5,427 nt of DNA from a virus (lineage: Duplodnaviria; Heunggongvirae; Uroviricota; Caudoviricetes). Of this stretch, positions 1 to 5,427 are shown one piece after another. Position 1 is the stretch's first letter, and each line of letters opens with the position of its first letter. Made by a program: the position numbers and the translations under genes. The notes under the pieces were generated by a model. That model saw nothing but the letters and a program-made list of their open reading frames with translations. It did not search any database and was not told the DNA's origin. The stretch lies in IMG/VR virus record IMGVR_UViG_2534681662_000019; one strand, 5' to 3'.

Positions 1-330
1 CCGGACTGTACCAGCGAAAACGGCACCCTGTCCGAACGCCGGCGGGCTGCCGCGAATAAAATGCGTATGACCGGCAATCTGAGTCGGCGCTTTTATGAAT
101 GGCTGGCTGCGCAGTACGGTTTTACCGTCAGGCTGACGGATTCCACAGAAGGCCAGTGGGTTACGCAGGTCAATATTTACGGTATTAAAAATTATCGCAA
201 CGCAACGGTGCTGGATAATGTTCTGACGCCGTTACGTGTTTATGAATCGGGTGCGCTGGAATGTTTACTGGAGAAATATAAACCCGCGCATCAGATTTAT
301 AAATTTGTTTACCATGACGGAGATAACTAA
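1..330 (+). CDS. 3'-terminal part of a phage tail/baseplate protein gene (Mu gene-48-like); 5' end lies upstream of the window
   Basis: Frame 1 is open from base 1 with no stop before the ATG at 61 listed in the ORF track, so the gene probably starts upstream. Its TAA stop (328-330) overlaps the S start codon as TAATG, a coupling typical of phage late operons. Product assignment is by position only. Confidence 0.55.
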   Translation, partial: PDCTSENGTLSERRRAAANKMRMTGNLSRRFYEWLAAQYGFTVRLTDSTEGQWVTQVNIYGIKNYRNATVLDNVLTPLRVYESGALECLLEKYKPAHQIYKFVYHDGDN

Positions 331-1865
331 TGTTTTATATTGATAACGACAGCGGCGTAACCGTCATGCCGCCCGTATCCGCCCAGCGTAGTGCTATCGT
401 TCGCTGGTTTTCAGAAGGTGACGGGAATAATGCTATCACATGGCCCGGCATGGACTGGTTTAATATTGTGCAGGCGGAGTTATTAAACACGCTGAAAGAA
501 GCCGGTATTCAACCGGATAAAACAAAATTAAACCAGCTTGCACTGTCCATTAAAGCCATTATGAGCAATAACGCGCTGCTGATAAAAAATAACCTCAGCG
601 AAATTAAAACTGCCGGGGCATCAGCACAGCGTACAGCACGTGAAAATCTGGATATCTGGGATGCCAGCCTGAACAAAAAAGGCCTCGTTCAGCTAACCAG
701 TGCCACTGACAGCCCCAGTGAAACGCTGGCAGCCACCGCAAAAGCGGTGAAAATTGCGATGGATAATGCCAATGCCCGTCTGGCAAAAGAGCGGAACGGA
801 GCAGATATTCCCAATAAACCGCTGTTTATCCAAAACCTCGGTTTGCAGGAAACAGTAAACAAGGCTGGTAACGCCGTTCAGCGTTCCGGCGATAAAATGA
901 CCGGAGAACTGAAAATTGGCACGGTGAATGCGCTGCGAATTTTCAATGATGCCTTCGGTCTTATTTTCCGTCGTTCAGAAGAGTACCTTCATTTCATCCC
1001 TACGGCTGAAGGACAAGGCGAAAACGGTGATATCGGCCCATTAAGGCCATTCGCTATAAATCTGAGAACAGGTGCTATATCTGTCAGCCACGGGGCCAAA
1101 ATTGATGGTGGGCTGGCGCTTGGTACAGATAACGCACTGGGCGGTAATTCCATTACTCTCGGAGATAACGACACTGGTATTAAACAGGGCGGCGACGGTG
1201 TCCTTTTATTCTATTCAAATGGACAACTGGCATTTGGGCTTCAACCCGCATCTGCTGATTTTTATAAGCGGGTTGCATATATTCATCAGGGAATAATTCC
1301 TGATGGAAGTGGCGCATTTGCAGACCAGTTGAATAATGCCACCGCGCCTTTTGTTCAGACGCAGTTTGCCTGGAATCCCACTCCTGGTGGTCATTACGTG
1401 CCGATAGTTAAGGGCTTGTCCATTCGCAATGGACAGGGCTATCCCGGCGCGGTCAGCTTTGGGTATTTACTGACAGAACAGTATGGATTTCCGGTTCCAT
1501 GTATTCATATGCGTGGCGATGGCGGTAATGATGCTTTATGGCAGTTTAACCCGAACGATAAATCCTTTATTTCACCGGGTGCTCTTATTGCGGGTGGCGT
1601 CCATTATAACACCGATGGAAATATATTTGGTGGGTGCTGGGGTTCAAACTTAAATGATTACCTGAATAGTTCTTTTATCAGAAATGTGCGTCTGGGAGGC
1701 AGACGTTCTGACGTATTATATCGCGGAGGACTTTGCGAACCAGGTAATGGTCATGTGACAACAGGATTGCAAATTATTGGTGAGGTTGATGGAGATGACT
1801 GGATGGTGTCACGACCACTACAAAAATACATTTCTGGTAACTGGTATAACGTTGAACAGGCATAG
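330..1865 (+). CDS. S: Tail fibre protein S: constant N-terminal part (Sc, about 330-838) fused in frame to the variable part Sv inside the invertible segment
   Basis: 511-aa ORF with ATG overlapping the upstream stop. It reads through gixL (826-851) as ...FIQNLGLQETVNKAGNAV... It shares a Gly-rich block (ALGGNSITLGDNDTGIKQGGDGVL) and a C-terminal block (GLQIIGEVDGDD...WYNVEQA) with the minus-strand S'v cassette. Followed 15 nt later by a tail-fibre assembly gene. Confidence 0.9.
   Translation: MFYIDNDSGVTVMPPVSAQRSAIVRWFSEGDGNNAITWPGMDWFNIVQAELLNTLKEAGIQPDKTKLNQLALSIKAIMSNNALLIKNNLSEIKTAGASAQRTARENLDIWDASLNKKGLVQLTSATDSPSETLAATAKAVKIAMDNANARLAKERNGADIPNKPLFIQNLGLQETVNKAGNAVQRSGDKMTGELKIGTVNALRIFNDAFGLIFRRSEEYLHFIPTAEGQGENGDIGPLRPFAINLRTGAISVSHGAKIDGGLALGTDNALGGNSITLGDNDTGIKQGGDGVLLFYSNGQLAFGLQPASADFYKRVAYIHQGIIPDGSGAFADQLNNATAPFVQTQFAWNPTPGGHYVPIVKGLSIRNGQGYPGAVSFGYLLTEQYGFPVPCIHMRGDGGNDALWQFNPNDKSFISPGALIAGGVHYNTDGNIFGGCWGSNLNDYLNSSFIRNVRLGGRRSDVLYRGGLCEPGNGHVTTGLQIIGEVDGDDWMVSRPLQKYISGNWYNVEQA
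826..851. other. gixL: gixL recombination site for Gin invertase (TTATCCAAAACC-TC-GGTTTGCAGGAA)
   Basis: 26-bp site with two 12-bp half-sites around a central TC dinucleotide (838-839). It matches the gix/hix half-site pattern as I recall it and is present in inverted orientation at 3837-3862. It lies inside the S coding sequence, as expected for the Sc/Sv junction. Confidence 0.85.
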
Positions 1866-1880
1866 CCATCAGGAGAATAT

Positions 1881-2408
1881 ATGCAACATCTGAAAAATAT
1901 TACCGCCGGAAACCCCAAAACCATTGAGCAGTATCAGCTTACGAAAAAAGCTGGCGTTATCTGGCTATATACAGAAGACGGTAAAAACTGGTATGACGAA
2001 TTAAAAAACTTTCAGGATGATACTTTAAAAATAGCTTATGACCAGAAGGGGATTATTCGTTGTATTGAGAAAGACGTATCAATGCTTAACCCTGACGGGT
2101 TAAGTGTTGTTGAGTTACCGAATATAACAGCCAACCGTCGCGCCGATATCTCGGGAAACTGGAAGTTTCTGGATGGTAAAGTAGTAAAGCGGGAATATAC
2201 AAAACAGGAACTGCAACAGCAGGCAGAGTTACAAAAAGCCGCTTTGCTTTCCGAAGCGGAGTCTGTGATTCAACCGCTGGAACGTGCTGTCAGACTGAAT
2301 ATGGCAACTGATGAGGAACGCACACGACTGGAATCATGGGAACGCTACAGCGTTATGGTCAGCCGTGTGGATACTGCAAAGCCTGAATGGCCACAGAAAC
2401 CAGAATAA
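1881..2408 (+). CDS. U: Tail fibre assembly protein U (chaperone for S)
   Basis: 175-aa ORF with AGGAG (1871-1875) 5 nt upstream of the ATG. Clear paralogue of the minus-strand 177-aa ORF (both start MQHLKNI..GNPKT.EQYQLTK...[12 protein letters not shown] and share ITANRRAD). Position directly after the fibre gene. Confidence 0.9.
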
Positions 2409-2417
2409 CAACAAATT

Positions 2418-2440
2418 AAGGCCCGTACGGGCCTTTTCTT
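2418..2440. terminator. Bidirectional rho-independent terminator between the convergent U and U' genes
   Basis: Hairpin aaGGCCC-gtac-GGGCCtt (2418-2435) followed by TTTTCTT on the + strand and preceded by an A/T-rich run (TTAATTTGTTGTT on the - strand). It sits in the 30-bp gap between the U stop (2406-2408) and the U' stop (2439-2441). Confidence 0.6.
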
Positions 2441-2972
2441 ATTCTGGTGGTTCCGGGAATGTTACAGGAAGAACCGAGGTATCAGTTGTCTCAACCTGTT
2501 GCACGTATCGCATCCAGTTCATCAGTTGCTGTCTGTCTGAATCAGTGATAATCCCCAAAGTAAGCTGTGTTTGCCAGAACTGCGTTTTTTCTCTGGCCTG
2601 CTGTAATAATATTTTTTTCTGGTTTTCCGTCTGTAGGCGCAACTCTTCTTCGGTATATACACGTTTAATGACTGCGCCATCTTTAAACATCCATTTACCT
2701 GAGTCGTCAGCACGCCGGTTGGCGGTAATATCAGGAATCTCAACGACGCTATAACCTTCAGGGTTAAGTGTGGAGGCATCTTTGGTTATGGCAACAATAA
2801 TATTATTTTCGTCGTAAACAATCTTTATGGTGTCTTCCTGAAAGTTATTTACTTCCTCATACCAGTTTTTACCGTCTTCTGTATATAACCAGATAACATC
2901 AAAATTCTTTGTTAGCTGATATTGCTCTTTTGTTTTTGGATTTCCTGACTTAATATTTTTTAAATGCTGCAT
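2439..2972 (-). CDS. U': Tail fibre assembly protein U' (chaperone for the alternative fibre S')
   Basis: 177-aa ORF on the minus strand, paralogous to U. Its ATG (2970-2972) lies 1 nt after the S'v stop codon (TAA, complement of 2976-2978), with AGGTG just upstream on the minus strand. Confidence 0.9.
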
Positions 2973-2975
2973 AAT

Positions 2976-3848
2976 TTACACCTGTGCGACGTTATACCAT
3001 GTGCCATTGATGTATTTTTGTATTGGTCTGAAGATGGCTTCATCATCGCCATCTACTTCACCAATGATTCTTAATCCGGTAATTGCGTGTCCGGCTTTTT
3101 CATAACGACCACCACGCGCCATCAATTGAACAACACGCGTACCCAGGCGAACATCTTTCACATAGCGGGAATCAAAATTCCCCCAGTTGCTGGGTTGTAT
3201 CTGACCGTTAACAGCAAATATTACTGAGTTATCTGTATTTCGCTGACTATAGAAATGCCAGCCAGAATCATCGCCAAGCTCTGCAACAGTTGGCCTTGAC
3301 GAAGCGCCCCATAAATTAAACCCTACGTTCTTCGTGGAGTTGTTGGAGCTGGATAGCGTGAATTTTTTACCATCCCCGGCCTGAATATTTTTAAAAGCAA
3401 TAGCCACTCCATTCTGAAAGCGGAATACACGCTGACTATTAGCATAAACATCCAGAATACCGTCTCCATTCTGTTTAAATCCGGTGTCATTATCACCAAG
3501 AACAATAGAGCTACCACCTAACGCATTCGTCGTACCAACTCCAAGACTGCCATTAATGACGGCATTTACCAGAATATTTAGTGCATCCCATTTCAGCGTC
3601 ATCAGGTCTTTTGTTGTGGTGCTCTGGCGGCTTCTCCATTTGAAATATTCATTGCCGTTGTCGCCTGTTTCAAACCACATGTATGAATCAGTGTCACCAT
3701 CGGCATCATTTTTAAATCCAATCTTCGCCCAGTCAGTATTTCGAATCCAGGCAAGGATTGAGTCATTTTCAAAAGTAAGCCCACCGGACAAGGTATCGCC
3801 ATTTTTTTGCACGGCGTTACCAGCCTTGTTTACCGTTTCCTGCAAACC
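2976..3848 (-). CDS. S': S'v: promoterless, startless variable C-terminal cassette of the alternative tail fibre, expressed only after G inversion as an Sc-S'v fusion
   Basis: Minus-strand open frame homologous to Sv at both ends (QETVNKAGNAVQ... and ...GLRIIGEVDGDD...WYNVAQV). It has no ATG or RBS of its own; the ORF track's M at 3845 is a TTG that is the Leu codon of the shared ...NLGLQETV... junction. The frame is closed one codon outside the crossover by a TAA (complement of 3855-3857) within gixR. Confidence 0.85.
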   Translation of the reverse strand, partial: GLQETVNKAGNAVQKNGDTLSGGLTFENDSILAWIRNTDWAKIGFKNDADGDTDSYMWFETGDNGNEYFKWRSRQSTTTKDLMTLKWDALNILVNAVINGSLGVGTTNALGGSSIVLGDNDTGFKQNGDGILDVYANSQRVFRFQNGVAIAFKNIQAGDGKKFTLSSSNNSTKNVGFNLWGASSRPTVAELGDDSGWHFYSQRNTDNSVIFAVNGQIQPSNWGNFDSRYVKDVRLGTRVVQLMARGGRYEKAGHAITGLRIIGEVDGDDEAIFRPIQKYINGTWYNVAQV

Positions 3849-3870
3849 GAGGTTTTAGATAATGGCTGTT
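3835..3870 (+). promoter_or_regulatory. Candidate gin promoter overlapping gixR (-10-like GATAAT at 3858-3863)
   Basis: GATAAT hexamer inside the outer gixR half-site, about 55 nt upstream of the gin start; the -35 is weak. In the Gin/Hin/Cin family the invertase promoter is reported to overlap the adjacent recombination site. The exact hexamers here are my inference. Confidence 0.3.
3837..3862. other. gixR: gixR recombination site (TTCCTGCAAACC-GA-GGTTTTAGATAA), inverted relative to gixL
   Basis: Its reverse complement is TTATCTAAAACC-TC-GGTTTGCAGGAA, identical to gixL except for one base (C in gixL, T in gixR). Central dinucleotide at 3849-3850. Located between the S'v cassette and gin. 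Confidence 0.85.
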
Positions 3871-3916
3871 TCCGGCCTGCATGGCATGATTTGCGCTTTT
3901 AAACGGGAGATCCAGA

Positions 3917-4510
3917 GTGCTGATTGGCTATGTAAGGGTATCAACAAATGACCAGAATACAGACCTGCAACGAAACGCTCTTGTTTGTGCAGGATGTGAA
4001 CAAATATTTGAAGATAAATTAAGCGGAACAAGGACAGACAGACCTGGATTAAAGCGCGCTTTAAAGCGTCTTCAAAAAGGTGACACACTGGTTGTCTGGA
4101 AACTGGATCGCCTCGGGCGAAGCATGAAACATCTGATTTCTCTCGTCGGAGAACTACGGGAGCGAGGGATTAATTTTCGCAGCCTTACTGACAGTATTGA
4201 TACGTCATCCCCAATGGGGCGTTTTTTCTTCCACGTTATGGGTGCCCTAGCTGAAATGGAACGAGAACTAATCATCGAGCGAACGATGGCAGGACTTGCT
4301 GCCGCCAGAAATAAAGGCCGTATTGGTGGGCGACCACCTAAACTAACCAAAGCGGAATGGGAGCAGGCCGGGCGTTTATTAGCACAAGGAATCCCCCGCA
4401 AGCAGGTTGCATTGATCTACGATGTGGCCCTGTCAACTCTGTATAAAAAACACCCCGCGAAACGAACGCACATAGAAAACGACGATCGAATCAATCAAAT
4501 CGATCGGTAA
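3917..4510 (+). CDS. gin: Site-specific DNA invertase Gin (serine recombinase, resolvase/invertase family)
   Basis: ORF starting at GTG 3917 with GGGAG (3905-3909) upstream. N-terminus MLIGYVRVSTNDQ has the catalytic Ser at position 9. The catalytic domain and C-terminal helix-turn-helix (GGRPPKLTKAEWEQA...) are characteristic of Gin/Pin/Hin/Cin. Located directly beside gixR. Confidence 0.95.
   Translation: MLIGYVRVSTNDQNTDLQRNALVCAGCEQIFEDKLSGTRTDRPGLKRALKRLQKGDTLVVWKLDRLGRSMKHLISLVGELRERGINFRSLTDSIDTSSPMGRFFFHVMGALAEMERELIIERTMAGLAAARNKGRIGGRPPKLTKAEWEQAGRLLAQGIPRKQVALIYDVALSTLYKKHPAKRTHIENDDRINQIDR
3960..4075. promoter_or_regulatory. Candidate Fis-dependent recombinational enhancer (sis) within the 5' part of gin
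   Basis: In Mu the enhancer lies inside the start of the gin coding sequence. Here there are Fis-like 15-mers of the G-N13-C type with A/T-rich cores, for example GAAGATAAATTAAGC (4010-4024) and GCGCTTTAAAGCGTC (4056-4070), plus a weaker one at 3962-3976 whose centre is 48 bp from the first. The Fis motif is degenerate, so this placement is tentative. Confidence 0.25.
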
Positions 4511-4518
4511 TACAGATC
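4484..4518. promoter_or_regulatory. Cluster of three GATC (Dam) sites upstream of the mom promoter: the methylation-sensitive OxyR (MomR) operator
   Basis: GATC at 4484-4487, 4502-4505 and 4515-4518, each within a GATCGA/CGATCG context, just upstream of the -35 region. In Mu, OxyR binds this region when it is unmethylated and represses mom. The sites lie inside the last codons of gin. Confidence 0.65.
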
Positions 4519-4520
4519 GA

Positions 4521-4572
4521 TTATGTCTCAATAACCACACTCAACCCATGATGTTTTTTAAGATAGTGGCGA
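4521..4572 (+). promoter_or_regulatory. mom operon promoter (Pmom): C-activator dyad, weak -35, 19-bp spacer with T6 run, -10 TAAGAT
   Basis: TTAT-N6-ATAA dyad (4521-4534); -35-like ACCACA (4534-4539); 19-bp spacer; TTTTTT (4554-4559) abutting the -10 TAAGAT (4559-4564). This is about 30 nt upstream of the com RBS and matches what I recall of the activator-dependent Mu mom promoter. Confidence 0.55.
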
Positions 4573-4592
4573 ATTGATGCAAAGGAGGTGAG

Positions 4593-4781
4593 ATGAAATC
4601 AATTCGCTGTAAAAACTGCAACAAACTGTTATTTAAGGCGGATTCCTTTGATCACATTGAAATCAGGTGTCCGCGTTGCAAACGTCACATCATAATGCTG
4701 AATGCCTGCGAGCATCCCACGGAGAAACATTGTGGGAAAAGAGAAAAAATCACGCATTCTGACGAAACCGTGCGTTATTGA
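4593..4781 (+). CDS. com: Com, zinc-finger translational activator of mom
   Basis: 62-aa ORF with strong RBS AGGAGG (4583-4588). Cys-X2-Cys...Cys-X2-Cys motif (C6, C9, C26, C29). Its 3' end overlaps the mom start by about 50 nt, as in the Mu com-mom operon. Confidence 0.9.
4715..4737 (+). promoter_or_regulatory. mRNA hairpin (translation-inhibition structure) sequestering the mom start codon
   Basis: UCCCAC (4715-4720) pairs with GUGGGA (4732-4737). The 11-nt loop GGAGAAACAUU contains the mom Shine-Dalgarno GGAG, and the GUG start (4732-4734) is inside the 3' arm of the stem. Consistent with Com-dependent translational activation. Confidence 0.55.
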
Positions 4782-5427
4782 GTATGAAGGCCAGATTGTT
4801 GGCTATGGTTCAAAGGAGCTGCGCGTTGAAACCATATCCTGCTGGCTGGCCCGCACAATTATTCAGGCAAAGCACTATTCCCGCCGTTTTGTGAATAACT
4901 CTTACCTCCACCTGGGAGTATTCAGCGGACGCGATCTGGTTGGCGTTCTCCAGTGGGGATATGCCCTTAACCCCAACTCAGGTCGTCGTGTCGTGCTTGA
5001 AACGGATAACCGGGGCTATATGGAGTTGAACCGCATGTGGCTACACGACGACATGCCCCGCAACTCTGAATCACGGGCCATCAGTTATGCACTGAAAACC
5101 ATAAGGTTACTGTATCCGTCAGTGGAGTGGGTTCAGTCTTTTGCAGACGAACGCTGCGGACGTGCTGGCGTTGTGTATCAGGCGTCAAATTTTGATTTTA
5201 TTGGCAGCCATGAAAGCACGTTCTACGAGCTGGATGGTGAGTGGTATCACGAGATAACGATGAACGCGATTAAACGCGGTGGACAACGAGGCGTGTATTT
5301 ACGGGCTAATAAAGAGCGTGCCGTGGTGCACAAATTTAATCAGTATCGCTACATCAGGTTCCTGAACAAGCGAGCAAGGAAGCGACTAAATACCAAGCTA
5401 TTCAAGGTTCAGCCATACCCTAAGTGA
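4732..5427 (+). CDS. mom: Mom, DNA adenine-modification protein (anti-restriction)
   Basis: Long ORF ending at the window edge. GTG 4732 has GGAG 7 nt upstream and gives 231 aa, the length I recall for Mu Mom. The in-frame ATG at 4702 (241 aa) used by the ORF track has no RBS. Overlaps com in a different frame. Confidence 0.85.

Follow-up and report, generated by a model that had tools for sequence, protein, structure and literature searches.

A single-base difference between the gix sites of a Mu-like phage forms an in-frame stop codon beside gin, probably at a free and degenerate position

Introduction

Gin-family invertases cleave and rejoin DNA at the central two base pairs of their crossover sites, and in the Din/Gin family a Fis-dependent recombinational enhancer lies within the 5′ part of the invertase gene. 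The cleavage position has been described for Gin cores (PMC5175349), and the motif of the Gin and Din-family sites has been defined (PMC5175349, PMC3241671).

Among the closest described systems, the G segment of Mu (AF083977) has the order S-U-U′-S′v-gin-com-mom and two identical gix sites, both reading TTATCCAAAACC with the codon CAA, so that no stop is present; the same identical sites are tabulated in PMC3241671. For PinB, the invertase of the Shigella boydii B segment, a bixR sequence with TAA has been published (PMC3241671). The C segment of P1 (Cin, cixL/cixR) is likewise a Din-family tail-fibre switch. In the P segment of e14 (PinE; stfE/stfP), the invertase-side flank supplies the stfE start, and the chimeric StfE2 made after inversion blocks T2 adsorption, as reported in 2025 (PMC12529663). 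Invertase-proximal cassettes are therefore not always silent, since the e14 flank drives StfE2.

Here we compare with these systems the right end of a Mu-like phage whose two gix sites differ at one base, and consider what the resulting stop codon may mean. None of the papers that our literature search covered mentions a stop codon in gixR.

Results

Organization of the window

The window, by which we mean the whole stretch of DNA analysed, comprises 5427 bases of the right end of a Mu-like phage with the gene order S, U, U′, S′v, gin, com and mom, as given by its list of open reading frames (Table 1). Its closest record is Yersinia phage vB_YpM_3, with 98.7% identity over the entire window; Mu and D108 are alignable to only 46% of it, because the variable cassettes differ. 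The gin product carries a Resolvase N-terminal domain (PF00239, E = 7e-50) and an HTH_7 domain (PF02796, E = 2.4e-17), is 99% identical to Mu Gin and retains the invariant column of the catalytic Ser9. An Rfam search of the window for RNA families gave no match.

The parked cassette S′v is 289–291 codons long, 291 being counted from the crossover to its stop, and resembles the C-terminal part of P2 gpH. At the DNA level, the parked S′v/U′ region (2662–3866, minus strand) is about 91% (91.5%) identical to the P2 genes H and G, and this match extends through gixR as far as 3866. P2 H contains an in-frame relic of the site, TTATCGAATATC TC GGTTTACAGGAA (I-E-Y-L-G-L-Q-E), though P2 has no invertase.

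Table 1. Features of the window
Feature	Position	Strand	Basis or sequence
S, tail-fibre gene, present orientation	330–1865	+	ORF list, Pfam (tail-fibre repeat)
Sc, constant part of S	330–838	+	
gixL, Sc-proximal 26-bp crossover site, inside the S frame	826–851	+	TTATCCAAAACC TC GGTTTGCAGGAA
gixL central crossover dinucleotide	838–839		TC
Sv, variable part of S	crossover to 1865	+	
U, tail-fibre assembly protein, expressed set	1881–2408	+	ORF list, Pfam
U′, tail-fibre assembly protein, parked set	2439–2972	-	ORF list, Pfam
S′v, parked variable tail-fibre cassette	2976–3848	-	ORF list, Pfam (fibre trimerisation domain)
gixR, gin-proximal 26-bp crossover site	3837–3862	-	minus strand, TTATCTAAAACC TC GGTTTGCAGGAA
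gixR central crossover dinucleotide	3849–3850		GA on + strand, TC on minus strand
In-frame TAA, gixR outer half-site	3855–3857	-	TTA on + strand
10-codon mini-ORF, MPCRPETAII*	3855–3887	-	ATG CCA TGC AGG CCG GAA ACA GCC ATT ATC TAA
gin, serine DNA invertase, reads away from the G segment	3917–4510	+	ORF list, Pfam
com	4593–4781	+	ORF list
mom	4702–5427	+	ORF list

The single mismatch between gixL and gixR creates a stop codon in frame with the parked cassette

Both sites are 26-bp imperfect palindromes made of two 12-bp half-sites and a 2-bp core, with the core motif AAASSWWSSTTT; they share the core AAACC TC GGTTT, with flanking half-sites of the TTATCN and TTCCTG types. They are inverted with respect to each other, bracket the invertible segment with identical central TC dinucleotides, and one of them adjoins a serine invertase gene encoding a catalytic domain and a C-terminal HTH. 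gixR is thus a known kind of site, which the sequence-only reading of the window had read correctly while over-interpreting its function.

Within the 26 bp, the sole difference is C831 in gixL versus T in gixR (the complement of A3857). The two sites belong to a longer inverted repeat (826–880 and 3808–3862; 55 nt, 95%), whose two further mismatches both fall within the G segment. In S, the frame through gixL reads ATC CAA AAC CTC, that is I167-Q168-N169-L170; the minus strand of gixR reads ATC TAA AAC CTC in the S′v frame, with the translation ...MPCRPETAII*NLGLQETVNKAGNAVQK..., and only the AAC codon and one base separate the TAA from the crossover dinucleotide. Comparison of the two sites bears out the sequence-only reading on both of these counts, the single mismatch and the in-frame TAA ahead of S′v: positions 3855–3857 are TTA on the plus strand, and the frame matches that of S′v. 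The stop codon in gixR is real.

The stop codon stays beside gin when the segment inverts

Situated in the outer half-site, 5–7 bp away from the 2-bp crossover, the mismatched base is not exchanged by inversion. We built the inverted window in silico and aligned it to related contigs. Contig L104 matches the inverted form in one piece, with 97.6% identity over 3524 bp, versus two pieces when aligned to the given orientation, and contig L048 is colinear with the inverted form at 96.3% over 3804 bp. As vB_YpM_3 has the same orientation as the window, the G segment occurs naturally in both orientations. At the L104 junction, TTATCTAAAACC... (TTATCTAAAACCTCGGTTTGCAGGAAacagtaaacaagg) is followed by 342 open codons that correspond to the window's Sv cassette, placed behind the gin-side TAA. 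The TAA thus remains beside gin while the cassettes swap places. It had been anticipated from the sequence that the stop would precede Sv after inversion, and L104 and L048 display exactly this arrangement; the accompanying idea that inversion would exchange the mismatched position was wrong.

Two contigs of the sample have unusual arrangements. The gin–G region occurs twice in L040 (264–3480 and 8400–11600), about 8.1 kb apart and with identical junctions, perhaps through tandem duplication or through a concatemer formed in the assembly. L186 has lost the outer half of its invertase-proximal site, …CTGTAAACCGAG being joined straight to the spacer, and its segment is presumably locked and non-invertible.

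Described inversion systems differ in whether they carry the stop

Mu resembles the window in the 26-bp architecture of its sites, the 12-bp core AAACC TC GGTTT, the type of the inner half-site and a 54-nt spacer to gin (55 nt if the count runs from the site's outer end and takes in the start codon's first base), but differs in its variable cassettes and in having CAA at gixR. Upstream of the site, the S′v frame of Mu runs for 106 codons with no stop, and an in-frame ATG occurs in this stretch; in the RefSeq record of Mu, the GeneMark CDS Mup52 starts at this flank ATG outside the G segment and crosses gixR. PhiR68_1 has the flank of the window but with C for T, and it too has an annotated CDS across gixR. 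In both records, L119 (NC_000929; 3039–4025) and L403 (PhiR68_1; 2934–3929), the CDS is labelled 'tail fiber protein' and runs from the gin-leader ATG through gixR into S′v.

D108 and SfMu gixR and PinB bixR have an outer half-site, GGTTTTAGATAA on the plus strand, identical to that of the window, and therefore share its in-frame TAA; the outer half of bixL is different, GGTATTCGATAA. At gixL, D108 and SfMu have a G beside the crossover (AAAACG TC), whereas the window has the canonical AAAACC. The same AAAACG TC, giving Q-N-V-G, is seen in the gixL sites of L116 (D108), L117 (SfMu) and L403 (PhiR68_1), at 1026–1051 or 826–851, and AAAACC in those of the window and Mu. According to the SfMu authors, a G next to the gixL crossover may reduce inversion.

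The e14 P segment and the Pin-type modules share with the window the site, a 54–55-nt spacer, a divergent invertase and a homologous in-frame ATG within a conserved ATGCCAT motif. They differ in the outer half-site, TTTTCATAAACG, where the TAA falls in another frame. The pinE-proximal site of e14 reads TTC ATA AAC GTT, and its cassette frame meets no stop as far back as an ATG ATG, preceded closely by AGGA, that corresponds to the annotated start of stfE. A consensus promoter scan of e14 gave one weak minus-strand site inside pinE, no more than expected by chance. In e14 (L115, 5606–5659) and in some 60 Pin-type modules (L324–L402), an in-frame ATG ATG is located 12–13 codons upstream of the crossover-spanning codon, with no stop in between in the Pin-type modules. 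Judged from these sequences, such an arrangement is consistent with the invertase-proximal stfE-type ORF of the Pin-type modules being a real, translatable gene. With its expressed and functional StfE2, e14 represents the reverse of a cassette guarded by a stop; in the phage of the window, this route to expression is closed by the TAA allele.

P1 has the cassette in the same frame (ATC CTA AAC CTT GGT), but its cin gene reads toward the segment. The first stop in the Sv′ frame of P1 lies 11 codons upstream. In the P1 record (L003, 2213–2238), the TAA of cin itself falls in the outer half of cixL, in the +1 frame relative to Sv′. A Pantoea varia locus (L217) carries an independent in-frame TGA 5 codons upstream.

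Taken over Mu, D108, P1 and e14, for which a check of conservation had been suggested, the stop is present in D108 only; Mu has CAA, P1 CTA and e14 ATA. Altogether, the TAA is carried by D108, SfMu, vB_YpM_3, Mu_3F6, vB_YpM_Tongde, a P2-like phage (520873), PinB bixR and most Gin-type modules, and is absent from the gixR or equivalent site of Mu, PhiR68_1, P1, e14 and about 60 Pin-type modules. The stop is therefore not conserved across independent inversion systems.

The stop-forming base is mostly T but is among the most changeable positions of its neighbourhood

The base is the third of four outer N positions in the 20-bp Gin core NNNNAAASSWWSSTTTNNNN (PMC5175349) and lies in a triplet that is not conserved in the Din-family consensus (PMC3241671). 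All four bases occur at this position in natural half-sites. Of the 36 single-base changes that the outer half-site could undergo, just 1 gives an in-frame stop; because the degenerate base precedes the consensus AA, about one in four free sites would read TAA. At gixL, T is forbidden, because the base starts the Gln168 codon of S and a T would truncate the tail fibre. With gixL coding and gixR free, differing constraints on the two sides are all that the mismatch needs.

We scanned IMG/VR with TTATCNAAAACCTCGGTTT and obtained 111 loci, which reduced to 69 unique Gin-type modules after removal of duplicates. The invertase-side base is T in 61, C in five and A in three of these 69, and the Sc-side base is C, A or G, never T, in the IMG/VR loci. 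At sites located 55 bp from a divergent invertase gene, the N is overwhelmingly T, even where the invertases are only 72–85% identical to the Gin of the window. A second sample contained 80 invertase loci, of which about 60 were Pin-type. Scanning viral contigs with the conserved leader 14-mer GCATGGCATGATTT gave about 70 distinct flanks that were chance matches and added few site variants, namely TTATTTAAAACC, TTATCTAATACC and one deleted outer half. With TCNAAAACCTCGGTTT (15 specified bases) in genome contigs, the Pantoea varia locus L217 was the one real locus among the matches listed, the others listed being nearly all due to chance.

On the flank tree, the column of this base requires 5 parsimony changes versus a mean of 1.65 per non-coding site of the spacer, and its pairwise identity is 0.786 versus a spacer mean of 0.911. 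The stop-forming base does not evolve more slowly than the unconstrained bases next to it, and is one of the most changeable positions of the neighbourhood. Lineages without T show no compensating stop nearby: the next in-frame stop is 18 or 104 codons away in T and non-T lineages alike. The 54-nt spacer between gixR and the gin start codon (3863–3916), presumably the leader and promoter region of gin, has a mean pairwise identity of 0.91 across modules.

Conservation is 89–97%, even at third codon positions, across the site, the spacer and the initial 180 nt of the invertase gene, as compared with 57% for the 3′ part of the gene. This gradient spans 3837–4100 of the window and the homologous parts of L004–L114, and suggests a cis-acting constraint (enhancer, promoter) or frequent exchange of the block. 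Since the entire block is conserved and the base is labile within it, the majority of T is not evidence for a special constraint.

The sequence shows no sign of translation entering from the gin side

Starting from a conserved in-frame ATG of the gin leader (3887–3885), a mini-ORF of 10 codons runs up to the stop. No Shine-Dalgarno sequence was found upon reading the sequence before this ATG. A crude consensus scan, from which weak or non-sigma-70 promoters may escape, detected no sigma-70-like promoter on either strand of 3800–5427. Without the TAA, the S′v frame would be open in the window for 104 further codons, which include an in-frame ATG. The proposal that the stop blocks read-through from the gin side stands in part: the TAA does close the frame, but neither a promoter nor a Shine-Dalgarno sequence supports incoming translation, and nothing in the sequence points to ribosomes coming from that side.

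The 104-codon open frame (3858–4169, minus strand) is antisense to the 5′ part of gin and in register with the parked cassette. We considered and rejected an antisense gene here: its length is reached by 234 of 5000 synonymous shuffles of gin, a marginal result, and in more diverged modules the frame meets stops at 11–18 codons. The frame is probably not a gene.

Discussion

We consider it probable that the stop arises from a free, degenerate base in gixR, whose common T allele happens to complete a stop codon, and that it acts at most as a dispensable fail-safe. As Gin cuts and rejoins only the central 2 bp, both outer half-sites keep their places, and the TAA is always found beside gin and in frame with whichever cassette is parked, S′v at present and Sv after inversion. 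The gixR side encodes nothing, which leaves the base free, and a T in front of the consensus AA automatically gives TAA. By ending the mini-ORF, the TAA renders the parked cassette untranslatable from the gin side, a cassette that is probably silent already because it has no promoter, no ribosome-binding site and no Sc part. The fail-safe may then be incidental and at most weakly useful, Mu doing without it, and we infer that selection on the stop is weak. Several observations count against an incidental origin: T is in the majority in modules whose invertases are only 72–85% identical to this Gin, it persists beside a neighbouring change (TTATTTAAAACC), the frame would run on for 104 codons with an in-frame ATG if the TAA were missing, and the homologous flank of e14 drives expression of the invertase-proximal cassette (PMC12529663). 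Because of this majority in diverged modules and this survival, some selection for the stop is possible.

It is rather unlikely that the TAA is a translational barrier kept by selection, stopping ribosomes that come from the gin flank or from antisense gin RNA before they enter the parked cassette; fibre fragments lacking Sc could poison trimer assembly or mask receptors. Such a role would agree with the rationale that only one fibre variant is expressed per cell (PMC9881135). It would also fit the presence of T in 61 of 69 unique Gin-type modules and in D108, SfMu, vB_YpM_3, Mu_3F6, Tongde and the P2-like phage, the conserved in-frame ATG 10 codons upstream, the e14 precedent of an open invertase-side frame that can be expressed (PMC12529663) and the independent TGA of Pantoea varia. 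Yet Mu, PhiR68_1, P1 and e14 do without the stop, as do about 60 Pin-type modules, in which the frame is open and has an ATG ATG; at least 5 changes have occurred at the position, one of the most labile nearby, and the non-T lineages have gained no closer stop in compensation; nor was a Shine-Dalgarno sequence found at the ATG, or a leftward promoter-like site.

An explanation at the level of DNA appears improbable. It holds that the T/A pair is kept because it tunes Gin binding at gixR or the gin promoter, with the stop as a by-product. On the plus strand, the A-rich GGTTTTAGATAA is located about 40 bp upstream of a likely extended -10 element, TGGCATGAT (3882–3890), and the gin promoter is presumed by us to overlap gixR. 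The block formed by the site, the spacer and the 5′ part of gin is conserved far beyond the rest of gin, which suggests cis-acting constraints, and a conserved ATGGCATGAT motif stands at a fixed distance from the site in Gin-type and Pin-type modules alike. Against a constraint on this particular pair, the consensus scan found no promoter, the position is variable and is not read by the catalytic domain of Gin (PMC5175349), and Mu functions with a G/C pair there.

More speculative, and improbable, is the idea that the C/T (or A) polymorphism is a natural switch which sets whether the invertase-proximal cassette is open or closed to a second reading that does not depend on Sc. Mu, PhiR68_1, e14 and the Pin-type prophages would be the open elements: there the conserved flank ATG could allow translation of the parked cassette into a free fibre tip that binds receptors and, as StfE2 of e14 does, masks them and blocks other phages. 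The closed elements would be the window, D108, SfMu and most Gin-type modules, where the TAA could have shut off this fibre-tip function. Each inversion of an open element would then change two products together, and carriage of the TAA allele would identify lineages that have abandoned a product serving defence or exclusion.

A sequencing or assembly error at the base is scarcely conceivable, as the same allele is found in vB_YpM_3, D108, SfMu, dozens of independent contigs and the published bixR.

Were the stop a selected guard, the textbook switch would gain a small design rule, namely that parked cassettes are sealed translationally besides lacking a promoter; the data argue against this as a general rule. 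The allele also matters for annotation. Where the stop is missing, as in Mu and PhiR68_1, gene finders call a CDS from the flank ATG across gixR, while in the window and in relatives with the T allele S′v is a fragment of a gene that lacks a promoter, and its start should not be placed at the TTG at 3845. Given that the flank of e14 drives a functional anti-phage protein, whether this frame is open or closed is of interest in Mu-like prophages.
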